From positions 48,824-112,823 of the forward strand of contig JACPBB010000002.1 of NCBI GenBank assembly GCA_016180525.1: a stretch of DNA of 64,000 bases, in the 5' to 3' direction. The DNA is from Parcubacteria group bacterium. GTDB lineage: Bacteria; Patescibacteriota; Minisyncoccia; Phycocordibacterales; UBA2135. The notes under the pieces were generated by a model. It was given only the letters and a program-made list of their open reading frames with translations. It had not been told where the DNA came from and did not search any database. Made by a program: the position numbers and the translations under genes. Shown here piece by piece: positions 3,135-57,320 of the stretch; the stretch's first letter is position 1; each line of letters opens with the position of its first letter.

Positions 3135-5183
3135 ATGGAGTTTGAAATGACCCCGATCGATGTTGATAAGCTCATTAAAAATGATATTGAAAGAAAGAAA
3201 AAGCGTCACAGCAAGCATCAGCATATCACATTTAAAGAGTACCTTGAATTAGTGAAGCAGAACCCGCGTATTGCCCAAAACGCATTCGCACGAGTGCATC
3301 AAATGATAATGCATGCCGGCATTGAAGAAATTCCGGAACATGAACGTTGGCTCGGTGTTGATCGGCGCCTTCTATTCTTTGCCCAAAAACTATTTGGCAT
3401 TGATTCTTGCGTTGTACAACTCACCGACCACATGGAAGCAGGCGCAAACCGTGCCTCAACGGGCAAACAAATCCCCCTTTTGGTTGGTCCGCCGGCGAGC
3501 GGAAAATCAAGCATTGTAAAAATGCTCAAACAAGGTTTGGAGCACTATGATCTCTTGCCCATTTTTGCAATCTCTGGATGTCCGAAGCACGAAGAGCCCC
3601 TACATCTACTTCCGAGAAATACGCGGGAAGAGATTGAAAAAGACCTTGGAGTACGTATTACTGGAGACCTGTGCCATGTATGTCGGCACCGCTTAAAAAC
3701 TGAATTTAAATCTGATGACGGCACTATTCGTTGGTGGGAATTCCCCGTTGAGACATTTACATTTTCTATTCAAGGAGCTCGCGGTATTACTTCATTTGAA
3801 CCTTCCAATGAAAAGGCGTCCGATATAACGGCTTTGACCGGAAGAGAAAATGTCGGTGTTACTTCAAATCCAAATCGTGGATACAAAGACCCTCACGCAT
3901 TTGAACTCTCTGGAGAAATTCCAAAGGCAGAGCGTGGAATTTGCGAAGGAAGAGAGCTTACTTCAAGCGACCCGGAAGTGCTTAATGTGTTCTTCAGCGT
4001 TGCCGAGGAACAAGAGTTGAAAATTACCGGTTCTAACTTCCCTCACCTGTCAGTGGATGCTGTCATTATCGGGCATACGAATCTAACGCCATATAAAAAC
4101 TTTGCGGGGGACAAGAAACACGAGGGACTGCATCAACGATTTTATGTGATTCCGTGTCCATATCCGCTTCGTATTCAGGACGAAGTCCGTGTATATAGAA
4201 AGCTCATTGAACAAGAAAGTGATTTTGTCCGTCTGAAGAAATGCCACATTGCCCCCGGCTCGCTTGAGCTCGCGGCAACGTTTGCTGTCATTACACGATA
4301 TGTAGAGTCTGACAAAGTCGGACCAATCACAAAGGCAAAAATCTACAATAACGAAAAGGCGCTTACAGAACTCGAAAACGCAGAAAGCAGGCCTCGTGAT
4401 ATTCAAGAATTGCTTGATGAAGGCCAGGGACATGCGGATATCGCAAAACGCGAAGGAATGTTCGGCGCAAGTGCGAGAGACGTGCTCGCGGCGCTCAACA
4501 ACGCACTCGTGCGCGAATCGACGCGCGGCAAGTGCTTAACCCCGCTTACCGCAATTCGTGCTATGCGCGATATATTCCAAGGTGAACACCGCATGGGATA
4601 CACTCCTGAGCAAATACAGAAATTCTTGGAGCTACTCTCTGCCGCAGAGGGAGAGAGTGTCATGACAGAGTACAAAGAGTTTGTCGTGACGGTCGTGAAC
4701 AAAGCGTATCTTAGGGCATACGGATCTCTTGCGGAAGAATTGTTTAGAAAGTACATTGCGGAAGTTGATCATTATCGCGACACAAAAAGAAAATATGTTC
4801 GCGGAAAACAAGTTGAGATTAAACGAGATATCGTAACGAACAAACCCAAGGAGCCTGATATCAAATTTCTCCGCTCTATTGAACAGCACATTCCGCTCAC
4901 GGAAGCAGAAGCAGAAGTGTTTCGCGGAGAAGTTCTTGAGTGTAAGGCAAGCATGAAGGACTTTTCTTACTCAACATATCCCCCCCTTGCGCGCGCGGTT
5001 GAGAAAAAGCTTCTCGCAGACAGTAAGTCCAGCCTGACGCTTGTGCTCGCGAGCGACAAACCGAAGGGAACCGAGGAAAAGAAACGAGTTGAAAACCTGT
5101 TCGCCTCTCTCGGCGAAAGTGGATTCTGTGAAGTGTGCGCTAAAGAAGTTGTTGAAAAAGCACAAGAGTTTTTGAGAGAATAA
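3135..5183 (+). CDS. prkA: PrkA family serine protein kinase (YeaG-like)
   Basis: Walker A motif LVGPPASGKSS. Length and overall similarity fit PrkA/YeaG. It is followed by yeaH and spoVR, as in the conserved trio. Confidence 0.9.
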   Translation: MEFEMTPIDVDKLIKNDIERKKKRHSKHQHITFKEYLELVKQNPRIAQNAFARVHQMIMHAGIEEIPEHERWLGVDRRLLFFAQKLFGIDSCVVQLTDHMEAGANRASTGKQIPLLVGPPASGKSSIVKMLKQGLEHYDLLPIFAISGCPKHEEPLHLLPRNTREEIEKDLGVRITGDLCHVCRHRLKTEFKSDDGTIRWWEFPVETFTFSIQGARGITSFEPSNEKASDITALTGRENVGVTSNPNRGYKDPHAFELSGEIPKAERGICEGRELTSSDPEVLNVFFSVAEEQELKITGSNFPHLSVDAVIIGHTNLTPYKNFAGDKKHEGLHQRFYVIPCPYPLRIQDEVRVYRKLIEQESDFVRLKKCHIAPGSLELAATFAVITRYVESDKVGPITKAKIYNNEKALTELENAESRPRDIQELLDEGQGHADIAKREGMFGASARDVLAALNNALVRESTRGKCLTPLTAIRAMRDIFQGEHRMGYTPEQIQKFLELLSAAEGESVMTEYKEFVVTVVNKAYLRAYGSLAEELFRKYIAEVDHYRDTKRKYVRGKQVEIKRDIVTNKPKEPDIKFLRSIEQHIPLTEAEAEVFRGEVLECKASMKDFSYSTYPPLARAVEKKLLADSKSSLTLVLASDKPKGTEEKKRVENLFASLGESGFCEVCAKEVVEKAQEFLRE

Positions 5184-5192
5184 CATACCCCA

Positions 5193-5225
5193 AAGCCCCC
5201 TCTTTTATGAGGTGGGCTTTTTTGC
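5193..5225 (+). terminator. intra-operon hairpin + T-run (attenuator-like) between prkA and yeaH
   Basis: AAGCCCCCTC...GGTGGGCTT stem followed by TTTTTTG. Confidence 0.4.
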
Positions 5226-5267
5226 TACACTCTAACATAGAGTATCCTTGAAAGACGGAGAATATAG

Positions 5268-5804
5268 ATGCCAATTATTGTCTCAGAACATATTCAAGAA
5301 CGCGGCAAGGGAGATGCGCGACGACATCGCGACAAGCAGCGAGAGGCTATAAAGAAAAATCTTCCTGAAATACTTTCGGAAGAATCAATTATCACTGGAA
5401 GGCCGGGGAAAATTATAAAAGTCCCCATTAAGAGTCTTGATATACCGCATTTTAAACACGGGCGAGGCAAAGACGAAAATGACGCCGGAGTTGGTCAAGG
5501 TAAGGGAAAGCCAGGGGATGTTATTGGTCGTCGGCCAGGAAAAGGAACAAAACCTGGAGGACCGGGAACTGAACCAGGGGTAGACTATCTTGAGGCAGAA
5601 TTTACCATTGAAGAATTGACGGAATTATTCCTTGAAGATATGGGTCTCCCCCGACTTGAGAAAAAAAATGTCCGTGAAATTGAAGTAGAGCTTGGATTTA
5701 AAGTAAGAGGAACCCAGCGCACAGGGCCGCATGTCCTTTTAAATCGCAAAAAAAACAGCGCAAGAGGGAATGAAGCGGTTTTGGAGCTTTCTCCAAGCAC
5801 TTAA
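5268..5804 (+). CDS. yeaH: YeaH/YhbH (DUF444) family protein, N-terminal part (frame 0; interrupted)
   Basis: N-terminal DUF444 region (lysine/arginine-rich, GRPGKGTKPGGPG). The frame terminates at 5804 while the C-terminal part continues in another frame. Confidence 0.6.
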   Translation: MPIIVSEHIQERGKGDARRHRDKQREAIKKNLPEILSEESIITGRPGKIIKVPIKSLDIPHFKHGRGKDENDAGVGQGKGKPGDVIGRRPGKGTKPGGPGTEPGVDYLEAEFTIEELTELFLEDMGLPRLEKKNVREIEVELGFKVRGTQRTGPHVLLNRKKNSARGNEAVLELSPST

Positions 5805-6597
5805 ACAAGAAACGGGAAAATCTGAACTGCACTGTTACGAAGCATTGAAGCGCACAGACGGCCGTTTTGCCGACGCGCTTGAATTGCTCAACGCAGGAAA
5901 AATTGTGCTGACAGACGAAAGTCACGTTTCTGTTGATCCATTCCCGATTCTTCACCATGAAGATTATCGATATCACAAAATAGAAGAAGATGTTACAAAA
6001 GAATCTCAGGCTGTGGTCATTGCGATTATGGACGTTTCCGCGTCAATGACTCCTCTCAAAAAATATTTCGCTCGCACAATGATCTTCTGGCTTGTAAATT
6101 TCCTACGGCAAATATATAAACGAGTTGACATCCGTTTTATCGCCCATGATACCGAGGCACGAATCGTCGATGAAGAAAATTTCTTCAGAGTTGGAGAAAG
6201 CGGCGGAACACACTGTTACGCCGGATATGAACTCGCAAACTCACTCATAGAGACTGATTATCCGATAAGCCAATGGAATGTGTATGTATGGCACTTCTCT
6301 GACGGAGAAGATGGAAACACAGCACGTTCTATGGAAGAGGCACGGAGGCTTTTTGAGCGAAAGATTAATATGTTCGGCTATGGGGAAATATGTCCTGAAA
6401 AAGAATATTGGCCACCTGAACTTCTAAAACAATTTATTAAGACCTTTGATCTCAAAGAAGTTAAAGAAGAAAAAGATTTCACGGTTCATGTAAGTTTTGA
6501 CGAAAAATATCCGTTCTTGGGTGTCGCGATGCAGGAAAAAAAACATATCTGGCAAGCCCTTAAGGCGTTTCTCAAGCGAGATAGGTGGTCGTCATGA
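5770..6597 (+). CDS. yeaH: YeaH/YhbH (DUF444) family protein, C-terminal vWA-like part (frame +1; open from 5743)
   Basis: VVIAIMDVSASM metal-ion-dependent adhesion motif and the conserved C-terminus of YeaH. It overlaps the upstream ORF, consistent with a 1-nt indel in the A8 tract at 5748-5755. Confidence 0.6.
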   Translation: MKRFWSFLQALKQETGKSELHCYEALKRTDGRFADALELLNAGKIVLTDESHVSVDPFPILHHEDYRYHKIEEDVTKESQAVVIAIMDVSASMTPLKKYFARTMIFWLVNFLRQIYKRVDIRFIAHDTEARIVDEENFFRVGESGGTHCYAGYELANSLIETDYPISQWNVYVWHFSDGEDGNTARSMEEARRLFERKINMFGYGEICPEKEYWPPELLKQFIKTFDLKEVKEEKDFTVHVSFDEKYPFLGVAMQEKKHIWQALKAFLKRDRWSS

Positions 6598-8105
6598 AAA
6601 AGCACGAACTAAAGCGTCTTATACAAATTGAGAAAGAAATAAAAAAGATCGCGGTTGAAGAGTGCGGCCTCTTAACGACCGATATCGTATTTGAGGTTGT
6701 CCCCGCAAGAAAAATGATTGAGGCAATGGCGTATCAGTTTCCGGTCAACTTTTCACACTGGTCCTTTGGACGCGATTATGACAGGCATCGCACCATTTAC
6801 GAACACACCGGAGTTGGAATACCATATGAACAAGTGTGGAACTTTGAAATTCCTAAGGCACTTCTCGTTGATACCAATCCACTTCCGTTAAATGTGTTGG
6901 TAATAGCCCATGTATACGGACACGTTGATTACTTTTTAGGAAATCGCTACTTACAACACGGTCGTTCTTTTTCCGATATCGCCGAAGAAGCACGGTATGC
7001 GGCGACACGGTTTAAAGAATATGAAGTCCGATTTGGAATAGAGTGGGTTGAAAAAGTAATTGAGGCAGGTATGGCGCTACAATGGCACCAGCCGCTTGAT
7101 CCCTTCCTGGAAGAGCCGCGTGAAGAAGATGCTCGTGCATATCTCATGAAATTGGAAAAAGAGAAAATGCGGTACGTTCAGACACACGCGGTCTCGTCAA
7201 ATAAAAAGAAGACTGAACAAGAGTTACGGAGACTGGAAGCACAGCTTAAAATACTCGCGCACAAAACTCCACCTGAACCAGTATATGATATACTCCAATA
7301 CATTATTAAACACGCCCCACGCCTTAAGGAAGAGGAGCGTGATATTTTAACGGTTATCAGAAATCAAGCGCGAGCACTGGCTCCAAATCGCAGAACGAAA
7401 CTGCTCGATGAAGGATGGGCGACATACTGGCACACCCGTATCATGCGCCGACTATTTGAAAAAGGACTTTTGAGTGCTGAAGAACATGGAGTCTTCCTTG
7501 ACTATCACGCAAAAGTAACTCAAGCGAGTAAGCGACAATTCAATGTATACAATATCGGTCCCGCACTCTTTGAGTACATAAAAGAGCGTTGGGACAGAGG
7601 GCAGTTCGGAAAAGAGTATGAGGAATGTAGGAACCCTTTTGAACGAAATCGATGGGACACAAAAGTAAACAGGGGAACAGAAAAAATATTTGAAGTTCGT
7701 TCTTCATATACTGACCGCATGGCAGCAGAAGAGTTTTTTACTCCAGATTTTATACGAGCATGTGAGTTATATATTTATGAAGATCGTCAAGATGGCTTAG
7801 GAAACATTGTGTCTGTCGTTGTGGAAAAGAGACCCGCAGAAGTTCAAAAAATCTTCAAAAGAATATATGCTCTCTACGGCACGCCTCAAATATGTGTCAT
7901 TGACGGCAATTATAAAGACAAAGGATTTTTGTATCTTGCCCACAAACCCTTCGGGGATGGGGAGCTTGATCAAACATACCGAAAAGGAGCTCTTGAATAT
8001 GTTTATGCATGTTGGAAACGCCCGGTTTTTCTGGAGACACAAATCGGCAAAGATGTTGTTGTATGTTCTTTTGATGGAACAAAACACAAGATTGTACCTA
8101 AATAA
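6585..8105 (+). CDS. spoVR: SpoVR family protein (YcgB-like)
   Basis: Full-length similarity to SpoVR/YcgB. Its start overlaps the yeaH end. Confidence 0.9.
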   Translation: MVVMKKHELKRLIQIEKEIKKIAVEECGLLTTDIVFEVVPARKMIEAMAYQFPVNFSHWSFGRDYDRHRTIYEHTGVGIPYEQVWNFEIPKALLVDTNPLPLNVLVIAHVYGHVDYFLGNRYLQHGRSFSDIAEEARYAATRFKEYEVRFGIEWVEKVIEAGMALQWHQPLDPFLEEPREEDARAYLMKLEKEKMRYVQTHAVSSNKKKTEQELRRLEAQLKILAHKTPPEPVYDILQYIIKHAPRLKEEERDILTVIRNQARALAPNRRTKLLDEGWATYWHTRIMRRLFEKGLLSAEEHGVFLDYHAKVTQASKRQFNVYNIGPALFEYIKERWDRGQFGKEYEECRNPFERNRWDTKVNRGTEKIFEVRSSYTDRMAAEEFFTPDFIRACELYIYEDRQDGLGNIVSVVVEKRPAEVQKIFKRIYALYGTPQICVIDGNYKDKGFLYLAHKPFGDGELDQTYRKGALEYVYACWKRPVFLETQIGKDVVVCSFDGTKHKIVPK

Positions 8106-10446: not shown

Positions 10447-10484
10447 ATACTTAGGGGTTAGTAGTTAGCGTTTAGGATTTAGTA

Positions 10485-11044: not shown

Positions 11045-11570
11045 CGAGTTTGAACAATCTGTTTTTCATTATTCTCGCCTGAGCTGCCCAATAAGCAGTC
11101 GGCGGGTTTTTTCTTCCCAGGGTCCGTCTTTGTTAGGCTTACTGGTAGCCAACCTTGGCTTCGAGATAAGCCTTCAGGGTACGATATACGCACCCTCGTG
11201 AGTCCATCCACATCGAAACCTCCTGTGAAAAGTGGTGGAAAGAACGCACATGAGGCCTCGCCGCTATTTATAATGTAAAAACATATGTGTTAAGGGAGGC
11301 CTCATGCGCATTCTCTCGCCTCTATGAACCATATTCTAATTCTTAACTCCTATTATACACAAATATAAAATTTTGTCAAGTTTTCACTAAGGAGGTAGTT
11401 TTTAATCCTCTTGGGATAAAAATAAAGTCATCCCGATTTGTATTGAGACTCGTTTGTTTTTTACGCAGGATACTTGAATTAGGGCGAACCCACCGCGCCT
11501 TCGGCGCGGCAGAACCCCCGCCAAAAATGCAGGCGGCGAAGCCGCACCGCTGACAATTTCAAGTTTTTTT
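11045..11570 (+). ncRNA. rnpB: candidate RNase P RNA (rnpB), bacterial type with insertions; boundaries approximate
   Basis: In the correct order, between tRNA-Val and a GC-rich islet:
- P4 5' strand-like AGTCGGCGGG (about 11098).
- CR-II/III-like CTGTGAAAAGTGGTGGAAAGAACGCAC (about 11224-11249).
- A long P12-like hairpin CATGAGGCCTC...GAGGCCTCATG.
- A UUCG-capped hairpin immediately before GGCAGAACCCCCGCC, the P4 3' strand (about 11507).
- Possible P2 pairing CGCCTG/CAGGCG and terminal T8.
No ORF of 60 aa or more lies in 11212-11618. rnpA is present elsewhere in the window. Confidence 0.45.
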
Positions 11571-11736
11571 TGACGGCGAATAAATCCAAGAATTCGCGAA
11601 GCGAATACCTTGAATGAACTAAATATAGAAAATTATGACAATAATTTCAATTTTAGAAAAAGTGAGAGCCCCGAGCAGATTTTTGGTCCGCGAGGGGCTC
11701 GGGTTGAGGGCGATGTTTGTGCGTGCCAGGCCACGA

Positions 11737-11910
11737 CTACTTCGTCTTGTAGAAGATCGTGATCGTGACGTCGTGGTCCAGGCGTCCGGAGGCGTCCTGC
11801 ATGGTTCGCGTGATCTCGATCTTGTCGCCCATCTTGTCGAGCCACGCATTGATCCGCTGTTCCAAGCCCTCCGCATCGTTGCAGCCGTAGAAGACTTTCA
11901 CTCGTTCCAT
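11737..11910 (-). CDS. small hypothetical protein (57 aa) in a GC-rich islet
   Basis: Strong RBS GAAGGAGG lies 8 nt upstream of the ATG (MERVKVFYGCNDAEG...). A hairpin plus T-run lies downstream. GC content is clearly higher than the surroundings. Confidence 0.5.
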   Translation of the reverse strand: MERVKVFYGCNDAEGLEQRINAWLDKMGDKIEITRTMQDASGRLDHDVTITIFYKTK

Positions 11911-14975: not shown

Positions 14976-15147
14976 TATTTTAAGTATACCCCCACACTAA
15001 TATATTTTGAAATTGATGTGGGGGTATAAGCAATAATCCCGCAGACGTATATGTTTTTAGCCCCATCCCGCCGTATACTCCTTATATGCCTACAATACAA
15101 ACACAGTTTGAAATAACAATGTGTGACACCCTTACGGACGCAGAGAT

Positions 15148-16138: not shown

Positions 16139-16311
16139 AGTATGTAGTATATCGCATCTTGCCTTGCCCGGTAGCGAGCCTTGCTCTGGTACTGGGGTAG
16201 TTTTGTATATATAACAATAATGAACCCTTAAAGATACAGGGTTGTTTGATACTTTATACTTGATATCAGAGCACTAAACACTCTTTTTGTGCTTTTAGTG
16301 CTCGACCGAGC

Positions 16312-16354
16312 ACATAATTTGCAAATTATGTGCTCGGGCTTTATACTTGATAAT
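16312..16354 (+). promoter_or_regulatory. 13-bp-arm inverted repeat (CGAGCACATAATTT/AAATTATGTGCTCG) fused to GGCTTTATACTT promoter-like element, abutting a start codon
   Basis: Near-identical architecture recurs at 45121-45165 upstream of pilB. TATACT lies about 10 nt before the ATG, consistent with a leaderless transcript. Confidence 0.45.
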
Positions 16355-16600
16355 ATGCCTTCATTAGAATTATTTTTTGAGCAAAATTTGTGGGTGCTGG
16401 TAGTTGCAATGCTCTGGGTTTTGCCGTGGAAAGGCTATGCCCTCTGGAGCGCCGCGCAACTGCGCCACAAATGGTGGTTCATTATTTTGCTCGTGGTAAA
16501 CACACTTGCAATTTTGGACATTATCTACATCTTTGCTATCGCCAAAAAAGGTAGCGCGCTTTTTGGAAAGAAAGATAGAGTTTCATCTCAAAACGAGTAA
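16355..16600 (+). CDS. small two-TM membrane protein (81 aa)
   Basis: ATG immediately follows the promoter-like motif. Two hydrophobic helices. A tRNA and terminator follow. Confidence 0.5.
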   Translation: MPSLELFFEQNLWVLVVAMLWVLPWKGYALWSAAQLRHKWWFIILLVVNTLAILDIIYIFAIAKKGSALFGKKDRVSSQNE

Positions 16601-24175: not shown

Positions 24176-25666
24176 ATGAAAGAGTTTGATGTGGAAGTTA
24201 CCACAAACGTTGTGGAATATTTAAAACAAAGACATTTTCGTCCATATAAGCGAAGCATTTTAAAGTTATGCCTAAAAATGCTTGAAAAATACACGGGAGA
24301 GAATATTACTATACCCGTCTCTCGAGAGCTTCAATTACTTGGAGGAACATCGGTTTATCTTTGGAATTCAATAGAGACGCTCTACGCACTGCAGTCTTTG
24401 GGTATCGTTTCGCATTTCTCAAAAAATATGCACTACCCAGACGAGCCGCGTCTTCACGGATATAGCGCGGCATATTCAACCTCAGCAAATCGTTCACTAA
24501 GTAGAGCAAGCGGGGTTGATTTCTTTGACAAAAAAAAGGCTTTCTTCCGAATGCTTGGCGAATCAGTTGAGCGGCATTTGTGGTCTTGCACAGATTTTTT
24601 TTCAAGAAATCAAATAATGAAACCTTATAAAGAAATTAAAAATAAATCATTGAATATATTTTTACTTGCCGGATTCACGAAAGAACAAAAAAAACAATAT
24701 AGAGAGCTCCAGCTTACCGAAAATACACCACTTGCGTGGATTCCCGCCACATCACTTGTAAGTGAAAAGAAAATATGGTGTCCAACACAACTATTGAGCG
24801 TCCGTTATTTTAGAGAAAATGTGAGAACGCCAAAGAGACCCGCGAAACCAGAGCCAATGCTGCGGTGGTGTGTTACCACAGGTCTTGCAACGGGAAAAAC
24901 ACTAGAGGAAGCAATCGTTGCTGGGATATTGGAGGTAATAGAAAGAGACGCATTTATGATTACCTTTTTAAATAAACTCTCTCCTCCACTCATAGATTTG
25001 GAATATGTCGCAAGCCAAGACAAAGACATAGATACTATTTTGAAAAAATTTAAACGATACAATCTTGAAGTATATATGATCGCGCTTCCCACTGATTTTC
25101 CTGTACACGTTGTGTTGAGCCTCGTTATTGACCCATCGGGACGAGGCCCGGCTACAAGTGTGGGAGCAAGTGCTGATTTTGATTTAAAAAGATGCATCCT
25201 TGACGCATTATCTGAATCTCTCTCAGTAAGATACAATATAAAAAATAAATACAAGGATCCGATTGATTTGCAACATATTGGAAGAGAAGAGAGAATATTA
25301 TATTGGGCAAAAGAAGAAAACGTGCCTGGTCTTGAATTTTTAACAAAAGGGAAAAAAAATAAAGTTGAGTTAAATAAACAACATGTTTCGCAAAACTCAG
25401 AGATTCGTCATGACAAAAAACAACTTGATACACTTAGAGTAGAATTTAAAAAACAAAATCAAGAAGTATGTTTTGTAGAGCTTTCCTCAAAAGAAACCAG
25501 AAAACTTGGCTTTAGAACGGTTTTTGTGGTTGCTCCGGAAATGCAGCCAATGCACCTTGATGAATCAATCCCCTATTTTGGTGGCAAGCGCCTCAAGGAA
25601 GTACCTGAGAAACTGGGATACAAACCAGCGAAAGAATTAAATAAGGAGCCACATCCCTTTCCTTAA
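24176..25666 (+). CDS. YcaO domain cyclodehydratase (TOMM D-protein-like) with about 100-aa N-terminal extension and C-terminal PxPxP
   Basis: FFRMLGESVERH and GLATGKTLEEAIVAGILEVIERDAF YcaO signatures. The C-terminus ends EPHPFP (PxPxP motif). Confidence 0.85.
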   Translation: MKEFDVEVTTNVVEYLKQRHFRPYKRSILKLCLKMLEKYTGENITIPVSRELQLLGGTSVYLWNSIETLYALQSLGIVSHFSKNMHYPDEPRLHGYSAAYSTSANRSLSRASGVDFFDKKKAFFRMLGESVERHLWSCTDFFSRNQIMKPYKEIKNKSLNIFLLAGFTKEQKKQYRELQLTENTPLAWIPATSLVSEKKIWCPTQLLSVRYFRENVRTPKRPAKPEPMLRWCVTTGLATGKTLEEAIVAGILEVIERDAFMITFLNKLSPPLIDLEYVASQDKDIDTILKKFKRYNLEVYMIALPTDFPVHVVLSLVIDPSGRGPATSVGASADFDLKRCILDALSESLSVRYNIKNKYKDPIDLQHIGREERILYWAKEENVPGLEFLTKGKKNKVELNKQHVSQNSEIRHDKKQLDTLRVEFKKQNQEVCFVELSSKETRKLGFRTVFVVAPEMQPMHLDESIPYFGGKRLKEVPEKLGYKPAKELNKEPHPFP

Positions 25667-25668
25667 TC

Positions 25669-26415
25669 ATGCTTTCTAAATTATTTCACAAAAAAATCAC
25701 AAATGAACGACCATATACACCAAGAGACCCAAAAGATTGGCCGATTTCATGGCGTACCGTGTATTTTAAAGAATACCCAAGATTTGATAGAGTAATGCTG
25801 CCAATAAATTTTTTAGAGCTGAAAAATTTAAAAGATGTTTTAGAAAAAAGACATTCTACCAGAACGTTTGACATAAAAAAAGAAATAACTCTACAGGAAC
25901 TCTCAACAATGCTTTATTATTCAGCCGGCATAAAAGGGACGCCTGGCAAATATAGAGACAAGCCGCAAATGGAAAAAAATAAATCAAGGCGATTCTATCC
26001 GTCCGGCGGAGAGCGATATCCGCTTGAAGTGTACGTCGCAATAAAGCGAATTTCCGAGATAAACTCTGGAATATACCACTATAACTTGCCCAATCACTCT
26101 CTTGAACAATTGTCAGATAAAGAATGTTTAAGCGAGTTTTATGAAGCACTTGGCGAACCATGGGCAAAAGACGCTGCGGTAGTTTTTATTATAACTGCTG
26201 TCTGGGATAGAAATTTTATAAAATATCAAGACTTCGGTTACAACATAATTCTTACCGAGACGGGACATATGGCTCAAAATCTAATTTTACTTTCAGAGTC
26301 TTTGGATCTACACTATTGTCCGTTTATTGGATTTGATAATAAAAAAATAAATAAAATTTTAGACATTGATGAGGAAAATGAGTCTTCTTTATATATGATT
26401 GCAGGAGGAAAATAG
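25669..26415 (+). CDS. SagB-type dehydrogenase (nitroreductase superfamily, TOMM B-protein-like)
   Basis: RHSTRTF and PSGGERYPLEVY motifs. Its start lies 3 nt after the ycaO stop. Confidence 0.8.
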   Translation: MLSKLFHKKITNERPYTPRDPKDWPISWRTVYFKEYPRFDRVMLPINFLELKNLKDVLEKRHSTRTFDIKKEITLQELSTMLYYSAGIKGTPGKYRDKPQMEKNKSRRFYPSGGERYPLEVYVAIKRISEINSGIYHYNLPNHSLEQLSDKECLSEFYEALGEPWAKDAAVVFIITAVWDRNFIKYQDFGYNIILTETGHMAQNLILLSESLDLHYCPFIGFDNKKINKILDIDEENESSLYMIAGGK

Positions 26416-26457
26416 TATTATTGATTCTTTAGAGAAATTTTATGTGCTATTAATTGT

Positions 26458-27483
26458 ATGTTTTTTATAAAAAACCTTTCACAAAACAACACAGAGCATG
26501 AAACCGTATTACAGGATCAGCTCTTGGCAACGCACTACTTAATTACTCTCACACACACAACACTTGAGCGTCTGGGCCTTTTTGATGTCTTGAGAAAAAA
26601 AACAGAGCCAGCAGCAATTGATGAGCTATCAAAAATAATAAAAGTAAGAACTGACATTTTAGAGGCTTGTATTAATTTCTTGTGGTCTACGACCAATTAT
26701 CTAGAAAAAAACGGGCAAAAAATTATTTTGAAAAATAATCCGCCAAAATGGTTTTGGATAGCAACGTATAAACCTGTATTTGACAACTTAGAAAGTTTAT
26801 TAAAAGGAACAAAAAAATATGGAAATGATGTTGTTCGTGATGGATATTATTTACAAAAAATGTCTATTACAATCAATAATCCGGTTGAAAATTATATAGT
26901 CCAACAGCTTCAAGAAATTAAAGAAAAAAGTATCCTTGTCGATTTGGGCTGCGGCCCAGGGACACTTCTTTCACGGGTAAGCGCTGCAAATCCATTAATA
27001 GAGGGGCTTGGCATAGATGTTGACCCAATCATAACCGACATTGCTCAAAAAAACGTAATGCGTTCGCGTCGTCCAATAAAAATTATCACGGCAGACGTGA
27101 CAAAAATACATTTCTGGAAAAAACACATTCCATCAAATGTAAATCTTATATTCTCAGCAAATTCCATACTCCATGAACTCTTACGAGACGGAGAAGAAAG
27201 GTTCATCTCTTTTTTAAAAACACTCAAGGGCGCGTTTCCGGGCTCTCGATTTTTTGTAACAGAAATTAACGCGCTTTCGCCTCAAGAAATAAAAAATATG
27301 CGGAGCAACGATTACAAATTTTTTATGGCAATGTTTATGTTCACCCATCCGCTTACTGAACAGGGATTGCCACGATCCAAAAAAGAATGGCTTTCTTTTT
27401 TTAAAAAAAGCCAGTGGTCCGTCATGCGAACAGAACAACCTAAAAATAATGACGCGCGAATTATCTATGACTGTCTCTTATGA
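26458..27483 (+). CDS. class I SAM-dependent methyltransferase (O-MT-like with N-terminal dimerisation region)
   Basis: ILVDLGCGPGTLLS motif I. Confidence 0.75.
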   Translation: MFFIKNLSQNNTEHETVLQDQLLATHYLITLTHTTLERLGLFDVLRKKTEPAAIDELSKIIKVRTDILEACINFLWSTTNYLEKNGQKIILKNNPPKWFWIATYKPVFDNLESLLKGTKKYGNDVVRDGYYLQKMSITINNPVENYIVQQLQEIKEKSILVDLGCGPGTLLSRVSAANPLIEGLGIDVDPIITDIAQKNVMRSRRPIKIITADVTKIHFWKKHIPSNVNLIFSANSILHELLRDGEERFISFLKTLKGAFPGSRFFVTEINALSPQEIKNMRSNDYKFFMAMFMFTHPLTEQGLPRSKKEWLSFFKKSQWSVMRTEQPKNNDARIIYDCLL

Positions 27484-36518: not shown

Positions 36519-36797
36519 ATGATTTTAAATTTTTTGTCTATGTGGTATTACGTATATATACTTCGTTCATTAAAGGATAAAAAATTTTATATAGGATATA
36601 CTACTAATTTAAAATCACGATTTGAGGCACATTCAAAAGGGCATGTAGAGTCAACAAAGAAAAGAGGTCAACTAAAAATTGTATATTCCGAAGCGTGCCT
36701 CAATAAAAAAGACGCGTTGCATCGTGAAAAATATTTTAAAACACATCATGGTAAACAATTTTTATATAAACGCCTCAAATCGTATTTAACAGGGTGA
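36519..36797 (+). CDS. GIY-YIG nuclease superfamily protein (YhbQ/UPF0213-like)
   Basis: YVYILRS...KFYIGYTTNLKSRFEAH matches the GIY-YIG motif. Confidence 0.8.
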   Translation: MILNFLSMWYYVYILRSLKDKKFYIGYTTNLKSRFEAHSKGHVESTKKRGQLKIVYSEACLNKKDALHREKYFKTHHGKQFLYKRLKSYLTG

Positions 36798-36834
36798 TGA
36801 TTTTAATAGTCATTTCATTCCTTAAAAATCTATC

Positions 36835-37716
36835 ATGGACATGCTCAAATGGATAATTTTTATACTTGTTATTCTTTGGATCGTTTGGTTTTTAACCGGC
36901 GGTCCAAAAAGCGGATTTGTCAGTCAGCCGTTTTTACGCCCTCCCGCCCCTCTTGATACCGGGGAGCTTTATGGAGAACCGCTTTCAATTCCAGGCTTTG
37001 AAAGCAGAAGTGAAACGGGGTCTGCACAAGAAGAGAGCGCGCCTACATCAATATTCAGCGGAAGTATACAGCTTGCGGTTGGCAACCCCTACACTCAAAG
37101 TCCGCAGGAAGAATATGTTGAGATACGAGCCTCTTACAGCAACACGCAACCAATTAACATAACTGGCTGGGAAATAAAAAGCGCGATAAGCGGACTTGGC
37201 GCAAAGATCGGACAGGGAGTATACCTGCCGGCGTCTGGATTAGTAAACAGAGAAGAGCAAATTTTTCTAAATCCAGGTGACCACGCCGTTATAAACACGG
37301 GGCGATCCCCAAACGGCGTTTCGTTTCGGCTTAACAGTTGCACCGGGTACTTTGAACAATTCCAAGATTTTGCTCCGCAGCTTCCCTCGCAATGTCCGCT
37401 TATTGAAACTAAAGATCTGCCCGCAGTTGGAGCAGGAGGATTAAATGATGCCTGTATAAATTATATAGAACGTCTTCCGCAGTGTTTTGCTCACGTGCTT
37501 GCGGTCCCCACAGAGCTTTCTTCGGCATGCGGTGAATATATAAATAAAAATATCCATTACAGCGGATGTGTAGCCGCGCATAAAAATGATTCGGATTTTT
37601 ACAAGTCAGAATGGAGAATATTTCTAAATCAAAATACCGAATTGTGGCGCCAAACTAGAGAAACAATAAAGTTGTTTGATGCGCAGGGAAAAGTCATAGA
37701 CTCGCTTTCCTATTAG
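36835..37716 (+). CDS. hypothetical membrane-anchored Cys-containing protein
   Basis: N-terminal TM segment. No recognised domain. Confidence 0.5.
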   Translation: MDMLKWIIFILVILWIVWFLTGGPKSGFVSQPFLRPPAPLDTGELYGEPLSIPGFESRSETGSAQEESAPTSIFSGSIQLAVGNPYTQSPQEEYVEIRASYSNTQPINITGWEIKSAISGLGAKIGQGVYLPASGLVNREEQIFLNPGDHAVINTGRSPNGVSFRLNSCTGYFEQFQDFAPQLPSQCPLIETKDLPAVGAGGLNDACINYIERLPQCFAHVLAVPTELSSACGEYINKNIHYSGCVAAHKNDSDFYKSEWRIFLNQNTELWRQTRETIKLFDAQGKVIDSLSY

Positions 37717-37723
37717 GAATTAG

Positions 37724-37782
37724 GCACTAGGCGTTAGAATTTAAATTTTCTAGAGCCTAACGCCTAATACCTAGAGCCTTTT
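37724..37782. repeat. TTAGGCG-heptamer palindromic intergenic element (convergent-gene terminator)
   Basis: aggcactaggcgttagaa...ttctagagcctaacgcctaatacctagagcc. The same element family occurs at 59355-59415, 61395-61440 and 62425-62520. Confidence 0.5.
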
Positions 37783-39888: not shown

Positions 39889-40599
39889 TTAGAGATTAAG
39901 CACGAATCGCTCAAGCGCAACGCGCATGTCATGGAGCCCGCGCCGCGCGTCGTGGTAGAGAGAAACGAGGGCCTCCGAGAGATTTTCAAGCTCTTCCGTA
40001 GAATAGTTATTCGCAAACCGTTTTGTTTTCTGATACACAAAGGGGTGAAGTCCCGGATTTTCTCCTTCCCGCTTCACCAAAAGCATATTTTTGATTTGAG
40101 AAAAAAATGTGCCAAGTATCTGCTCCGGCTTAAGACCTTCTCCATCAATCGCCTTACAAAACAATACCCATGTTTTTTTGCGGTCTCGTGCGCCAAATGC
40201 GTCTCCAAGCGCAAAGGAGTTAATGTTTCTTTTTTGTCCTTTTTCTTTCTCTGACTTCCATATTTTCTGCGCGTGCGCAGTAATCTTTTTTATAAACGCC
40301 GCCTCAATTTTCTCTTCAAGTAATACAAAAACATTCGGGGATTCCGCAAACTCTTTTAAACGTTCTTCAATAAATGCTTTCGCCTCCGGCGCAAGAAGGG
40401 CATTTCGCAAAAGAATAATATGCTCGCGCTCAAAAAGTCCCTGCCCGTGTAGGAGCTCTTCAATATCCCGAATATTAAAATTTTCCTCTCCGTATTCAAA
40501 AAAGGACGCGTTCGGTTTTTTCTCAAACAATTTTTCTAAAAACATATCGCACTTTTTGCGACTTTCATCAGCGTTGTTTCCATAAAAAAGATAAATCAT
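39889..40599 (-). CDS. holA: DNA polymerase III subunit delta (HolA-like)
   Basis: MIYLFYG N-terminus and a delta-subunit-like helical C-terminus. Adjacent to polA. Confidence 0.65.
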   Translation of the reverse strand: MIYLFYGNNADESRKKCDMFLEKLFEKKPNASFFEYGEENFNIRDIEELLHGQGLFEREHIILLRNALLAPEAKAFIEERLKEFAESPNVFVLLEEKIEAAFIKKITAHAQKIWKSEKEKGQKRNINSFALGDAFGARDRKKTWVLFCKAIDGEGLKPEQILGTFFSQIKNMLLVKREGENPGLHPFVYQKTKRFANNYSTEELENLSEALVSLYHDARRGLHDMRVALERFVLNL

Positions 40600-45000: not shown

Positions 45001-45120
45001 TGACCCCTCCTTTTTGGGCCGCATTGTGGGTGTCAAAACCCGCACAAAGTTTATATGAAGAGAGATTGTGGGTCAAGCTAACCCACCTTTATACCTTATA
45101 CAGAATACCGAAGCACCGAA

Positions 45121-45165
45121 CACATACTTTCAAAGTATGTGCTCTGGCTTTATACTTAAAGATAT
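45121..45165 (+). promoter_or_regulatory. 13-bp-arm inverted repeat (GAACACATACTTT/AAAGTATGTGCTC) fused to GGCTTTATACTT promoter-like element abutting the pilB start
   Basis: Near-identical to 16312-16354. Confidence 0.45.
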
Positions 45166-46845
45166 ATGGTTACATTTGACGAGAACAGGCAAAACAAACA
45201 ACTGGAGATACTGCGCCGCTCTGAAGAAGAGGACGTGGTAAAAATACTTTCTCAAAAATACGGAATTCCCTATCTTGACCTTGGAAGTATTCCTATAAAC
45301 ACGGACGCACTCCGCCTTATTCCCGAAGAAGAGTCGCGAGAAGCAGAGGCCGCCGGTTTTAAGCTTGTCGGCAAAAAAATTTTTGTGGCGGTTCTTTCTC
45401 CCAAAAAAGAGAGAACTCTCATGGCTTTAAAAGAACTTGAGCGCAAGGGATATGAGCCGCTCCTTAATCTTGTCTCAAGACAAGGCCTTGAGCGCGCTTG
45501 GGAGCGTTATAAAGAAATTTCTTTTGCCGAAGAGACGGAGGCGGGGGTTCTTGAAATTTCAAGTCAAAAACTCTCTTCGTTTGTTGAAGAGCTCGGGACA
45601 ATAGAGGACCTTAAAAAACTTATTACCGAAACGATGGGGTCATCCACAAAATATCATGTATCCCACATTCTTGAAATTCTAATTGCTGGCGGCATGGCAA
45701 CTGAAGCTTCCGATATTCACATTGAACCGGAGGAGACTTCCGCAAAATTGCGGCTACGGCTTGATGGAGTGCTTCAAGATTTAATGTTTATTGAAAGCAA
45801 AATATATACCCTCATCAACTCACGCATTAAATTGCTCTCGGGACTCAAGCTTAATGTTAAAGATGAGGCTCAGGACGGCAGATTTAGCATAAAAATTAAG
45901 GATAACGATATAGAAATCAGAACTTCAATAATTCCCGGCGCATATGGAGAGTCAATTGTAATGCGTCTGTTAAATCCTAAAAAACTTTCTGTTTCTTTTG
46001 AAAATCTTGGGATAGAGCCGCGGCTTCTTTCAATTATTGAGCGTGAGCTTGAGAAACCAAACGGAATGATATTAAATACCGGCCCGACGGGATCTGGAAA
46101 AACAACCGCGCTCTACGCTTTTTTAAAAAAAGTGCAAACTCCTGGAATAAAAATTATCACCATTGAGGATCCTGTTGAATATCATCTGCCGGGAATCACG
46201 CAAACCCAGGTTGACGAGGAGGGAGAGTATACATTCGCGCAAGGAGTCCGCTCCGTGCTCCGACAAGACCCTGATGTCATCATGATTGGAGAAATCAGGG
46301 ACAAAGATACCGCACGAACCGCGATTCACGCGGCTTTGACCGGACATTTGGTTCTCGCAACGCTTCACACAAACAACGCTGCCGGAACAATTCCGCGTCT
46401 TATTGATCTGGGAGTTAACAGTAAAGTTATTGGCTCCGCGCTTACGGCGACAATGGCGCAGAGACTCGTGAGAAAAATATGCCTTGAGTGCAAGAAAAAA
46501 CGGGCACCCACCGCCGCTGAAAAGAAAATTATTCAAACTATTATTTCCCGTATGCCCGATATATATAAGCAAGAAATGCCAAAAACATACTCACTGTGGG
46601 AGGGAGAGAAGTGTCTCAAGTGCCACAACACCGGCTATAAAGGAAGAATTGGTATTTTTGAAGCAATACTGATGGATGAACAGGTAGAGAAAGTAACAAC
46701 CCAAAATCCAAGCGAGCGTGAAATTACAAAAGCTGCCGAATCCCAAAATATACTGTCAATGCGGGAAGACGGACTGTTAAAAGTTATGCGGGGCATAACT
46801 TCTCTTTCTGAATTAGAACGAGTGGTTGGACTTGAAGGAGACTGA
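45166..46845 (+). CDS. pilB: type II/IV secretion system ATPase (PilB/GspE family)
   Basis: Walker A GPTGSGKTT. Asp/His boxes. C-terminal CxxC...CxxC zinc motif (CLECK...CLKCHNTG). Confidence 0.85.
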   Translation: MVTFDENRQNKQLEILRRSEEEDVVKILSQKYGIPYLDLGSIPINTDALRLIPEEESREAEAAGFKLVGKKIFVAVLSPKKERTLMALKELERKGYEPLLNLVSRQGLERAWERYKEISFAEETEAGVLEISSQKLSSFVEELGTIEDLKKLITETMGSSTKYHVSHILEILIAGGMATEASDIHIEPEETSAKLRLRLDGVLQDLMFIESKIYTLINSRIKLLSGLKLNVKDEAQDGRFSIKIKDNDIEIRTSIIPGAYGESIVMRLLNPKKLSVSFENLGIEPRLLSIIERELEKPNGMILNTGPTGSGKTTALYAFLKKVQTPGIKIITIEDPVEYHLPGITQTQVDEEGEYTFAQGVRSVLRQDPDVIMIGEIRDKDTARTAIHAALTGHLVLATLHTNNAAGTIPRLIDLGVNSKVIGSALTATMAQRLVRKICLECKKKRAPTAAEKKIIQTIISRMPDIYKQEMPKTYSLWEGEKCLKCHNTGYKGRIGIFEAILMDEQVEKVTTQNPSEREITKAAESQNILSMREDGLLKVMRGITSLSELERVVGLEGD

Positions 46846-48472: not shown

Positions 48473-49006
48473 ATGTCGGGACATAACAAATGGAGTAAAA
48501 TTAAACACAAAAAAGCGGCGGAAGATGCTAAAAAAAGCAAGGCATTTTCAAAGTTTACCCGCCTCATAACGCTTGAGGCAAAAAAAGCAGCCGGAAACAA
48601 AGACGCTCCCGGGCTGCGAACTATCATTGAGCGCGCACGAGCAATTAACATGCCTGCCGATAATATTGAGCGAGCAATTAAAAAAGGTTCTGATAAAGAA
48701 TCCGCAAATCTTGAGGAGGTAACATATGAAGCATACGGTCCGGGCGGAAGCGCGCTCATTGTAGAGGGACTCACTGATAACAAAAACAGGACTTTGGGAG
48801 AATTAAAAATATTATTCGCTGATTATGATACAACTCTTGCCGAGCGCGGAGCAGCACTCTGGGCGTTTGAAAAAACTCCCGACAAAAAGTGGCACCCAAA
48901 AACTACCATGTCTCTTTCAGATGAGAATAAGGAAAAATTAAAACAACTGATTGATATGTTGGAGGAAAACGATGATGTGCAAGCAGTATATACTAATGGC
49001 GGTTAG
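48473..49006 (+). CDS. yebC: YebC/PmpR family DNA-binding transcriptional regulator
   Basis: MSGHNKWSKIKHKKAA N-terminus is characteristic of YebC. Followed by ruvC, as in many bacteria. Confidence 0.85.
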   Translation: MSGHNKWSKIKHKKAAEDAKKSKAFSKFTRLITLEAKKAAGNKDAPGLRTIIERARAINMPADNIERAIKKGSDKESANLEEVTYEAYGPGGSALIVEGLTDNKNRTLGELKILFADYDTTLAERGAALWAFEKTPDKKWHPKTTMSLSDENKEKLKQLIDMLEENDDVQAVYTNGG

Positions 49007-54038: not shown

Positions 54039-55136
54039 CTACTTATTGAGCGGCATCACGAGGTACATGAATGATTTGTCCCCCACTCCTCGTATGACAA
54101 GCGGGCGAGCTTCGCCGCTAAATTGAAAGACAACGCTGTCTTTTGGTATTGAAGCAAAACATTCAATCAAATATCTCTGATTAAAACTCAAAGAAAGTTT
54201 TTCTCCGGAAAGAGCTCCTTCTATATTCGCCACATGCTCTCCAACATCCGCATTTTGGGAATGAACTGTAAACTCTTTTCCTTTAGGATCAACTGAGAAA
54301 TCAACCTGATTTAATTTATCTGAAAATATATTGGATATTTTTAGGGCATTTATCATATCTTCTTTTAGTATCGTTGCTTCTGATTTAAATTCTTTGGGAA
54401 TAATCTGTTGATAATCCGGAAAGACGCCGTCAATAATGCGGGAAGTTATATACATATTTTCAGTCACAAAAGAAATTTGATTTTTATCAAAATGAACTTC
54501 AACATCTCCAGAAACTTCGTCAAGTATTCGTATTATTTCCAATATATTTTTTAACGGGATAAGCACCGGAGAAAATTGTTCTCCATGGGAAACAGATAAT
54601 TTTTTTTCAGCAAGACGAAACGAGTCGGTCGCGACTAGCGTAACTGTGTCAGAGTCTCCAAAAATATAAACGCTTGATATTTCAGGTTTTATATCGGATA
54701 GTGAGGCACTGTGAGAAACTGATTTAAGTCCCGAAACAAATTTATGCGAATCAATAATAAAAGGATTTTTATTTTTTATATGGGGTAATGTCGGAAAATC
54801 TTCATATGGGTAACTTTTAATAACCGTTGATATATTTTTTGTTGAAACTGAAAGATTATTATTTTTAAGCTTCAATGAAACCGTCTTGTCATGCATATTT
54901 GATAGCAGATTATTAAGTACTCCACCGGGAATTGCGGTTACCCCTTCTTCTTCTACTTTTGCAGGAACTATAATTTCAACTCCTAAATCAAGATTCGTTG
55001 CCCGTATACGCACCATTTGTCCTTTAGCGACAAAAAGTAAAGAACTCAAAATAGGCAATGTAAGATTTTTACCGGTTACTTTTTCTGCAATACTGACAGC
55101 ATTTTTTATTTTTTCTTTTACACATTCTATTCTCAT
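54039..55136 (-). CDS. dnaN: DNA polymerase III subunit beta (sliding clamp)
   Basis: Three-domain clamp length. Position next to dnaA. Confidence 0.9.
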   Translation of the reverse strand: MRIECVKEKIKNAVSIAEKVTGKNLTLPILSSLLFVAKGQMVRIRATNLDLGVEIIVPAKVEEEGVTAIPGGVLNNLLSNMHDKTVSLKLKNNNLSVSTKNISTVIKSYPYEDFPTLPHIKNKNPFIIDSHKFVSGLKSVSHSASLSDIKPEISSVYIFGDSDTVTLVATDSFRLAEKKLSVSHGEQFSPVLIPLKNILEIIRILDEVSGDVEVHFDKNQISFVTENMYITSRIIDGVFPDYQQIIPKEFKSEATILKEDMINALKISNIFSDKLNQVDFSVDPKGKEFTVHSQNADVGEHVANIEGALSGEKLSLSFNQRYLIECFASIPKDSVVFQFSGEARPLVIRGVGDKSFMYLVMPLNK

Positions 55137-55440
55137 AAATAATCTATTTTAAAAAACTATACACCACTGTTTATAAAATATAATGTTTTGATTATAAATA
55201 TATAATGATGATTATAGTGTTGTTGATATGTTTATAAAACTTATATTGTCTTTAAATTCAAAGGTTTATTTGAAACTATAATTTTTAACATCGTGTTGAA
55301 AATTAAAATGAAATGTTTACATTTTTTTTATATCGGTAATTACAGAAATTATATCCATATCATGCACATGTTTTAATTCGATATTTCCACTCACTGTTCA
55401 CATTTTTATATAAGATGTAAACAGTGTTATAAACAATTCT
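55137..55440. promoter_or_regulatory. AT-rich dnaA-dnaN intergenic region with DnaA-box-like motifs (candidate oriC part)
   Basis: About 300 bp of very AT-rich DNA between dnaN and dnaA, with TGTTATAAACA/CTATACACC-like boxes. Confidence 0.35.
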
Positions 55441-56796
55441 TTAAAACATTGAACGAATTCTTTCAACCTCCTGAACGAGCATATTGTTTTCTTTTAGGTT
55501 GTTTCTGATTTTTTCACACGAATGTATAACGGTTGTGTGATCTCTTCCTCCCATTTTTTGTCCAATAGTTGGATAAGAAATATTAAAATCTTCCCGCAAA
55601 ATATACATAATTATCTGGCGAGGCTTAACAATTTCTTTACGCCTGGTTTTCTTATAAATATGATCTCGTTCTACATTGTAAAAATCAGAGACCACACGCA
55701 CCACATCATCAACGGAAAGCATTTTTTTAGGGCGTTCATTGTGTTTTATAAGAGACTTAATTTCTTGAATGGATAATTCTCTGTTTTTTAATTGAACTTG
55801 GCAGATAATCATATTTAATATTCCTTCTAATTCTCTGATACTGCTTTGCGTGGCAGAAGAAACATACTCAATAATTTCATCCGGCAATTCAAAATTTGCC
55901 TGCTTTGATTTTGATTTGAGGATAACCACTTTTGACTCAAAATCAGGCTCCATAATATCAACGATCATTCCCTGCCCAAGTCTAGATTTAAGGCGCTCCT
56001 CAAGTTCTGCGTAGTTGTAGTGTCTATCAGCGGAAAATATCATTTGTTTATTGTTGTTGTACAACGTATTAAACAAATGGAAAAATTCATCCTGTGTTCC
56101 GCCTTTTCCTTCAAAATAATGTATATCGTCCATTATGAGCACGTCATATTTACGGTATTTTTCCTTAAAAATACTTATTTTATTCATTTGCACTGAGTTT
56201 ATATAGTCAAGATAAAACTTTTCGGCAGTGAGATAATACACCTTTTTATTTTCATGAGCCTGTTTTATGCCATTCCCGACAGCTTGCATAAGATGTGTTT
56301 TACCAAGGCCAGTTTTCCCATAAATAAATAAGGGATTATAGGCATCGCCTGGCTTTTTCATGACCGATTGAGCAGCTGCATAGGCAATCTCGTTAAAGGG
56401 GCCTACCACAAAAGACTCAAAACCATATCGAGGGTTTAAATTATCTTCTTTATTTATATAAAGGTCTTTAAGAGGCAGTTCTCCGGCATAGGCTGGAGCT
56501 TTTTCCTCTAATTGTACGGCCTCTTTTACCTCTCGTGGCTCATTTTTTGTGATGATATACTCAATACTCCGCACGCCCTCGTTTAAATTCCGCAGAGAGC
56601 GCAGTATAGACTTATGATACTTATTGGAAAGCCACTCTCGCGCGAATCCATTGGGAACACCCAAAAAAATGATTCCATTTTCCTGCTTTACAATATAGGT
56701 GTTTTTAAACCATGTACTAAAATTTGCTTTGGAAACGCCTATCTCGAGGTCGCTGAGTACATTTTCCCAAAGTTGTTTGTTGTCCATAGTGAGCAC
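55441..56796 (-). CDS. dnaA: chromosomal replication initiator protein DnaA
   Basis: Walker A GKTGLGKTHL. AAA+ motifs. C-terminal DNA-binding domain (GGRDHTTV). Confidence 0.9.
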   Translation of the reverse strand: MLTMDNKQLWENVLSDLEIGVSKANFSTWFKNTYIVKQENGIIFLGVPNGFAREWLSNKYHKSILRSLRNLNEGVRSIEYIITKNEPREVKEAVQLEEKAPAYAGELPLKDLYINKEDNLNPRYGFESFVVGPFNEIAYAAAQSVMKKPGDAYNPLFIYGKTGLGKTHLMQAVGNGIKQAHENKKVYYLTAEKFYLDYINSVQMNKISIFKEKYRKYDVLIMDDIHYFEGKGGTQDEFFHLFNTLYNNNKQMIFSADRHYNYAELEERLKSRLGQGMIVDIMEPDFESKVVILKSKSKQANFELPDEIIEYVSSATQSSIRELEGILNMIICQVQLKNRELSIQEIKSLIKHNERPKKMLSVDDVVRVVSDFYNVERDHIYKKTRRKEIVKPRQIIMYILREDFNISYPTIGQKMGGRDHTTVIHSCEKIRNNLKENNMLVQEVERIRSMF

Positions 56797-57218: not shown

Positions 57219-57320
57219 ATATAACACGAAATGTTCGAAAAACATTCGAAATCTATGAAAATATAATGTTTTTAATTTCATAATTTCGCATATGATTTTT
57301 TAGTTCCGCATTATTGTTTT

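Follow-up and report, generated by a model that had tools for sequence, protein, structure and literature searches.

pilB and a gene for a small DUF5652 membrane protein, in the genome of an uncultured bacterium of the Parcubacteria (CPR), are each preceded by a palindrome that covers a −35-like hexamer and is followed by a −10-like TATACT a few nucleotides ahead of the start codon. Comparison of the two sites suggests, as the best explanation, that they are paralogous copies of a lineage-specific promoter cassette of 45 to 55 nt. The cassette looks like a promoter that works through a palindromic operator overlapping its −35 element, and in its evolution it resembles a small family of putative mobile promoters (PMPs). 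The analysis covered 64,000 nt of contiguous DNA (the window; GC content, 40.7%), whose PilB, PilM, and DUF5652 proteins each match, at 100% identity, an NCBI protein labeled "MAG: Parcubacteria group bacterium."

Anatomy of the two cassettes

Copy 1 lies upstream of the gene for the 81-amino-acid (aa) DUF5652 small membrane protein (positions 16355 to 16600, + strand; Pfam PF18893, E=1e-18) and reads, in order, GATACTTTATACTTGATATCA, hairpin A, GA, CCGAGCACATAATTTG abutting CAAATTATGTGCTCGG, GCTTTATACTTGATAAT, and ATG. An identical 81-aa DUF5652 protein is present in NCBI with the same start annotated, and DUF5652 orthologues begin at the same Met-Pro. The main palindrome (16306 to 16337, unstranded) is perfect over 32 bp, with arms CCGAGCACATAATTTG (16306 to 16321) and CAAATTATGTGCTCGG (16322 to 16337) and zero spacer. 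A −35-like TTGCAA (16319 to 16324, + strand) is located at the palindrome dyad, 17 bp 5′ of TATACT, and a simple sigma-70 scan returned TTGCAA-17-TATACT at 16319 to 16347. The palindrome runs into GGCTTTATACTT (16337 to 16348), in which TATACT occupies 16342 to 16347; after a further 7 nt comes the ATG at 16355.

Both hairpins of copy 1 are bracketed by an exact 14-nt direct repeat, CTTTATACTTGATA. Its upstream copy, Box 1 (16252 to 16265, + strand), includes a −10-like TATACT at 16255 to 16260 and is, from its sequence, a possible upstream promoter, P1, with no recognizable −35 element; its downstream copy, Box 2 (16339 to 16352, + strand), holds the −10 TATACT at 16342 to 16347. Hairpin A (16269 to 16303, + strand; GAGCACTAAA, 15 nt, TTTAGTGCTC) is present in copy 1 only, has arms of 10 bp (16269 to 16278 and 16294 to 16303), and has a GAGCAC...GTGCTC stem base in common with the main palindrome of copy 1. 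Alignment of the copies leaves ~33 extra nt in copy 1.

Copy 2 lies upstream of pilB (45166 to 46845, + strand), which encodes a GspE/PilB type IV pilus ATPase of 559 aa (PF05157 and PF00437), and it reads CTTTATAC..., GAACACATACTTT, c, AAAGTATGTGCTC, T, GGCTTTATACTT, AAAGATAT, and ATG. Its main palindrome (45118 to 45144, unstranded) spans 27 bp, with arms GAACACATACTTT (45118 to 45130) and AAAGTATGTGCTC (45132 to 45144) that are complementary at 12 of 13 positions and 1 nt apart. The −35-like hexamer TTCAAA (45129 to 45134, + strand) is again at the palindrome center, here 16 bp 5′ of TATACT, and the same sigma-70 scan returned TTCAAA-16-TATACT at 45129 to 45156. GGCTTTATACTT follows at 45146 to 45157 (+ strand), and its −10 TATACT (45151 to 45156) is 9 nt ahead of the ATG at 45166. 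Farther upstream, Box 1′ (CTTTATACCTTATAC; 45087 to 45102, + strand) is a degenerate duplicate of the −10 box, with hexamers TATACC (45090 to 45095) and TATACA (45097 to 45102); the latter ends 7 nt short of 45110, where pairing in the extended copy 2 hairpin begins.

The inverted repeat and junction before a start codon described in the first-pass annotation are thus present in the sequence, and so is the same composite upstream of pilB (copy 2, 45118 to 45157, in the same register). A few details needed correction. The arms, given as 13 bp, are 16 bp in copy 1; the half-copy placed at 16257 is a true repeat, extending over the 14 nt of Box 1; and the second palindrome of copy 1, hairpin A, was credited with 9-bp arms. 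The module had also been placed about 10 nt before the start codon, which holds for the −10 box (ending 7 to 9 nt before the ATG) and does not hold for the palindrome itself, which ends 18 to 21 nt before it.

Proposed copying of the cassette

From ACCGA to the ATG, the cassettes match at 47 of 56 aligned columns (84%). Their local alignment scored 61 to 63; of the 435 pairwise comparisons made among the upstream regions of the window, the runner-up scored 30. The palindrome pattern had 0 matches in 100 shuffles, and exact GGCTTTATACTT is found in the window at two sites only, copy 1 and copy 2. In both copies, the palindrome stands in the same register to the −10 box, with the right arm filling the −35/−10 spacer. 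Relative to copy 1, the arms of copy 2 show a compensated A:T-to-C:G change and an uncompensated G-to-A change. Identity between the copies continues into asymmetric flanking bases (ACC upstream, CTCNGG downstream), which argues for copying of a cassette rather than for independent operator sites.

PMPs have been defined as upstream regions of at least 50 nt and at least 80% identity that precede nonhomologous genes (PMC3488235). Families with just two members account for 68% of the total, and two members with ~92% identity are the commonest case (PMC3488235; Matus-Garcia, Nijveen & van Passel 2012). The cassette pair falls within these limits of length and identity, although it is borderline in length (56 columns, 84%), and its neighboring coding sequences are nonhomologous both downstream (DUF5652 versus a T2SSE ATPase) and upstream (RuvX versus a 17-kDa-antigen/glycine-zipper protein). 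Like PMPs, it consists of highly similar promoters directly 5′ of nonhomologous genes in one genome; unlike them, it owes part of its similarity (CTTTATACTT) to the general promoter consensus of the clade, and no mobilizing mechanism was identified.

Leaderless starts

A −10-like hexamer ends 6 to 9 nt ahead of the start codon in 10 of the 57 genes of the window, compared with ~1 expected, and a Shine-Dalgarno (SD)-like 4-mer was found for only 4 of the 57. Examples of leaderless-type starts in the window are those at 14983 to 14988 and 16146 to 16151 and those near 18 kb, 33.7 kb, 43.4 kb, and 58.0 kb. The geometry is kept in orthologues. TATACT stands 6 to 7 nt before ATG-GTT/ATT in pilB orthologues (85, 84, 79, and 72% identity), 6 to 8 nt before the conserved ATG in the DUF5652 orthologues of L013 (67% PilM identity) and L022 (89% DUF5652 identity), and 8 nt before the conserved MLY..RFFRFFPPP start in pilM orthologues. 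The ATG follows the end of TATACT by 7 nt in copy 1 and by 9 nt in copy 2, so that transcription would start at the start codon or within 2 nt of it. The reading of TATACT as a promoter −10 element placed for a leaderless mRNA, or for one with a leader of 0 to 2 nt, is well supported by these comparisons.

The first-pass annotation had proposed leaderless translation for the module in particular. The gene counts and the conservation among orthologues give good support to leaderless translation itself; by the same evidence, the geometry is a genome-wide style and not a property of the module. The genome appears, from its start regions, to rely largely on leaderless, SD-free starts from a stereotyped CTTTATACTT promoter. 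A literature search found no account of such a style for Parcubacteria. On sequence, the cassette can be compared with the promoters of leaderless mRNAs in Actinobacteria, Deinococcus, and archaea.

The promoters of the clade are highly stereotyped, with tandem heptamers (CTACTTT / NATACTT) leading into the −10 element (L005, 1700 to 1770; L022, 1950 to 2063; L008, 1680 to 1741; window, 16246 to 16265). A 19-nt stretch, ACTTTATACTTAACATATG, is identical 5′ of pilB in L005 and 5′ of the DUF5652 gene in L022, a different species, and a 23-nt stretch, TTTCTACTTTCTACTTTATACTT, is common to the upstream regions of pilB in L005 and ruvX in L022. Since such stereotyped stretches are shared across loci, part of the similarity from promoter to promoter reflects consensus and not mobility.

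Distribution in the source genome and in relatives

Logan contigs of the same species, 100% identical to the window and without strain polymorphism, extended it by 6.9 kb on the left and by ~100 nt on the right. No further copy was found in the 6.9-kb left extension, so that the cassette has two copies only in ~71 kb of the source genome (the window plus 6.9 kb). The palindrome pattern had one unrelated match, in a Dehalococcoidia metagenome-assembled genome (MAG), among 185,579 species genomes, a set that does not include the source genome; this match was judged to be due to chance. A flexible hairpin-plus-junction pattern had two unrelated chance matches in JGI metagenomes (also without the source genome); in IMG/VR, the palindrome pattern had one chance match in a coding region and the junction pattern had none. 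An nhmmer profile of the two copies, run over the window and all retrieved loci, yielded no convincing third copy. A weak match at 40099 to 40137 (E=0.006) covers the right half only (AAGTATCTGCTCCGGCTTAAGAC), has no left arm, and lies within the holA coding sequence on the opposite strand; it is probably a chance match.

The palindrome is absent 5′ of pilB in four relatives (L005 to L008; 72 to 85% aa identity) and 5′ of the DUF5652 gene in two (L013 and L022), and on these alignments it is lineage-specific. Beyond the two known copies, ~71 kb of the source genome yielded none, the collections yielded chance matches at most, and the relatives lack the palindrome at both loci. The existence of two copies only, which the first-pass annotation had named as a refuting result, applies to these ~71 kb, and the small regulon envisaged there is not supported so far.

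The pilM promoter was considered as a third member. An inverted repeat at 14985 to 15028 surrounds its −35 element, but the arms and the register differ. The repeat (TATACCCCCACA...TGTGGGGGTATA, − strand) flanks a TTCAAA −35 hexamer and overlaps the −10 element. Two relatives have a different repeat at the same place 5′ of pilM (L011, 1 to 51; L022, 838 to 958), of the form GCGTTGTCA-N7-TGACAnnGC with conserved arms and a variable spacer. Either a terminator of dedA that overlaps the pilM promoter or a distinct operator could account for the pilM repeat; its location after the codirectional dedA favors the former reading, an overlap of terminator and promoter. The contigs of L011 and L012 start 51 and 178 nt 5′ of pilM, respectively, with both assemblies breaking there, which may point to repeats or hairpins in the intergenic DNA.

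A copied insert as a possible alternative

The spacer between ruvX and the DUF5652 gene is 114 nt long in L022 and 216 nt long in the window, and L022 becomes homologous to the window precisely from position 16339, the first base of Box 2. In L005, two CTTTATACTT boxes are adjacent, with nothing between them. Such shorter, "empty" sites would be expected if the palindrome were a copied or mobile insert with no dedicated regulator, forming a two-member PMP family, an explanation that we regard as possible, if rather unlikely. The insert could be MITE-like or REP-like, or it could have spread via hairpin-mediated template switching or gene conversion. It would have landed in the −10 region of two leaderless promoters, duplicating the target box, and would persist because, by chance, it supplied a usable −35 element and left a functional −10 element beside the ATG. 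Homology of the cassettes over 47 of 56 columns between unrelated genes on both sides is consistent with this account, as are the direct repeats of the local promoter box that flank the insert (14 nt in copy 1, 8 nt in copy 2) and the inverted outer ends of the copy 1 insert (AGAGCACTAAA ... TTATGTGCTCG). However, there are only two copies, none was found in the other genomes or metagenomes scanned, and the search of the window turned up neither a transposase gene nor a RAYT or IS200/IS605 gene. The direct repeats, moreover, are unequal in length, unlike a transposase footprint. The −10 boxes of the clade are tandem even where the insert is missing (L005 and L022), and the flanking repeats therefore need not be target site duplications.

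Correia elements of Neisseria, other MITEs, and REP/BIME sequences occur in tens to hundreds of copies, end in defined inverted repeats, and make fixed target duplications. Like the cassette, they are short intergenic palindromes that can add promoter hexamers and have short flanking direct repeats; unlike them, the cassette has two copies and unequal flanking repeats. With two copies in ~71 kb, flanks of 14 and 8 nt, and neither transposase nor RAYT in the window, the cassette does not match a MITE- or REP-type repeat. A more specific joint claim, which we consider improbable, is that the cassette represents a miniature palindromic element specialized for leaderless promoters. It would insert at the start region of a TATACT promoter, duplicate the box, and contribute a −35 element of its own at the hairpin apex. 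A cruciform or hairpin would then possibly serve as a control or transposition intermediate.

The palindrome as a putative operator

The reading that we tentatively take as the best explanation, with considerable reservation, is that the palindrome is the operator of a dimeric repressor on a recently copied promoter cassette. Each cassette would be a sigma-70-type promoter (TTGCAA or TTCAAA, 16 to 17 bp, TATACT) yielding a leaderless mRNA, and the 27- to 32-bp palindrome (half-site GA[G/A]CACATA[A/C]TTT), centered on the −35 element at about −33 from the start, would be the predicted site of a dimeric DNA-binding protein. Binding of this putative protein would keep RNA polymerase off the −35 element and spacer and would also block transcription from the duplicated upstream −10 box. 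The outcome would be corepression of pilB and of the DUF5652 gene adjoining pilMNO, the cassette having been copied from one of these loci to the other. The sequence itself shows the anatomy of the cassettes, their homology, the leaderless geometry with its conservation, and the lack of the palindrome in relatives; protein binding, repression, and coregulation of the two genes are what we infer from the arrangement.

Several features of the cassettes argue for an operator. Both copies have the same register to the −10 box, with the −35-like hexamer at the dyad, and the arms are conserved between them over 13 nt per half. An operator dyad near −33.5 is the classic position for promoter occlusion by bacterial repressors, and the dyad of the palindrome lies at about −33.5. 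Both genes belong to a type IV pilus neighborhood: the DUF5652 gene is beside ruvX-dedA-pilMNO in the window and beside a pilin gene in L013. The leaderless geometry is conserved in orthologues, the palindrome lacks the A-run and T-run flanks of the true terminators of the window, and no Rfam family matched it. The dimeric regulator site suggested in the first-pass annotation is plausible given a dyad centered on the −35 element, but the orthologous promoters of relatives do not have the palindrome.

Other observations weigh against an operator. The cassette has only two copies in ~71 kb of the source genome, the palindrome is missing in relatives at both loci, and the window yielded no regulator gene. 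A Pfam scan of ~50 window proteins, which bears on the co-occurring helix-turn-helix regulator that had been anticipated, detected no regulator of that type, the only candidate being YebC/TACO1 at 48473 to 49006. Half-sites of 13 to 16 nt exceed the need of one helix-turn-helix contact, and the identity in asymmetric bases fits recent copying better than selection for a binding site. Hairpin A repeats GAGCAC...GTGCTC at another spacing, which a rigid dimer would not tolerate. Like the repressor operators of TetR, MarR, Xre, and LexA type that overlap the −35 element or spacer, the cassette is dyad symmetric near −33 and in the same register in two promoters; in contrast to them, its symmetry of 27 to 32 bp is longer than most, it comprises two sites with no known cognate regulator, and its palindrome is not conserved in orthologous promoters. 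The palindrome falls short of the conservation and of the cognate regulator expected of an established regulon.

Two known operators were compared with the palindromes and rejected. The CIRCE operator of HrcA is TTAGCACTC-N9-GAGTGCTAA and is found upstream of groE and dnaK. The arms of hairpin A (GAGCACTAA ... TTAGTGCTC) superficially resemble its half-sites, but they are everted, with a core of GCAC versus GTGC and a spacing of 17 instead of 9 nt, and the genes are not chaperone genes. The Gram-positive LexA box (CGAAC-N4-GTTCG) does not fit in half-site order or spacing.

The compensated A:T-to-C:G change between the copies fits pairing, or hairpin homogenization, better than readout by a protein. 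It counts in favor of an element acting at the RNA level, which we judge unlikely, in which transcripts from P1, the upstream duplicate box, would begin with the hairpin or hairpins. A 5′-terminal stem-loop might shield a leadered mRNA from 5′-to-3′ decay, or an attenuator/terminator might end P1 transcripts in the U-rich CUUUAUACUU and leave the leaderless promoter, P2, as the only productive one. The −10 hexamers of the upstream boxes are placed exactly 7 nt before the first paired base (16269 and 45110); as the sequence of copy 1 reads, the Box 1 hexamer ends 7 nt before base 16268, one base ahead of the start of hairpin A. Both folds are far more stable than those of shuffled sequences (z = −8.0 for copy 1 and −3.8 for copy 2), and a simple terminator scan accepts copy 1, on the basis of 14 pairs and a GCTTTATACT tail. 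The 5′-to-3′ exonuclease RNase J is retained in CPR bacteria (PMC12641178). On the other side, P1 has no recognizable −35 element and was missed by the promoter scan, copy 2 fails the terminator scan, and the uncompensated G-to-A change produces an A-C mismatch on the + strand (G-U on the − strand). Two sequences are too few for covariation, and in Rfam 15 only tRNAs reached gathering score in the window, with best local E values of 0.17 to 0.84, far below gathering scores.

Termination in particular would concern only the hypothetical P1 transcript. Both copies have divergent genes on their upstream side, which leaves the palindromes no gene to terminate, and the palindromes differ from the genuine terminators of the window, which are A-run/stem/T-run hairpins with clear T-runs at gene ends.

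Finally, the position of the −35 hexamer at the apex of copy 1 could be taken to indicate a supercoiling-driven cruciform switch, in which extrusion would put the −35 element in a hairpin loop and turn the promoter off with no protein involved. The perfect 32-bp palindrome of copy 1, with zero spacer and an AT-rich center, would suit extrusion, and arm symmetry is kept between the copies. We nevertheless consider such a switch highly improbable: the mismatch and shorter arms of copy 2 lower the chance of extrusion, and to our knowledge natural cases of cruciform promoter switching are scarce.

Other features of the window

Inverted heptamer arrays, (CCTAACG / TTAGGCG)n, occur at 37713 to 37773, 59355 to 59420, and 62427 to 62513, with a further occurrence at 10451 to 10462. 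They occupy at least three intergenic regions (19 matches compared with 4 expected) and form long hairpins, mostly between gene ends; as a family, they outnumber the promoter palindrome. A region with a GIY-YIG nuclease gene (36467 to 36837; open reading frame [ORF], 36519 to 36797) has 87% DNA identity to L022 positions 11434 to 11796, and its neighbors have 64 to 76%. In L022, the gene is in another context, between YcaO and nitroreductase genes, and it looks like a recently mobile gene of the homing endonuclease type. Genes for a YcaO cyclodehydratase, a nitroreductase family protein, a methyltransferase, and a DegT aminotransferase stand in a row at 24176 to 28580 and may form a CPR gene cluster for RiPP or azoline-type modification. 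A PrkA/DUF444 (two ORFs)/SpoVR operon at 3135 to 8105 is a stress module of the yeaG-yeaH-ycgB type. The replication origin neighborhood at 54039 to 59358 contains dnaN, dnaA, rnpA, yidC, and a jag/R3H gene; AT-rich repeats lie there at 55171 to 55216 and 56812 to 56837.

Significance

We know of almost no experimental work on the control of transcription in Parcubacteria or other CPR bacteria. The apparent leaderless, SD-free style of the genome is the broader and firmer result; the module itself has two copies, is restricted to one species, and is of a familiar kind. Should the palindrome prove to be an operator, it would provide a handle on a regulator that couples the pilus motor PilB to DUF5652, which we take to be a widespread, CPR-specific membrane protein with no known function. 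If the miniature-element account were true, it would describe a leaderless promoter that is portable and could rewire gene expression in a reduced CPR genome. If the cassette was copied from one locus to the other, it would exemplify the spread of a promoter within a very small genome.
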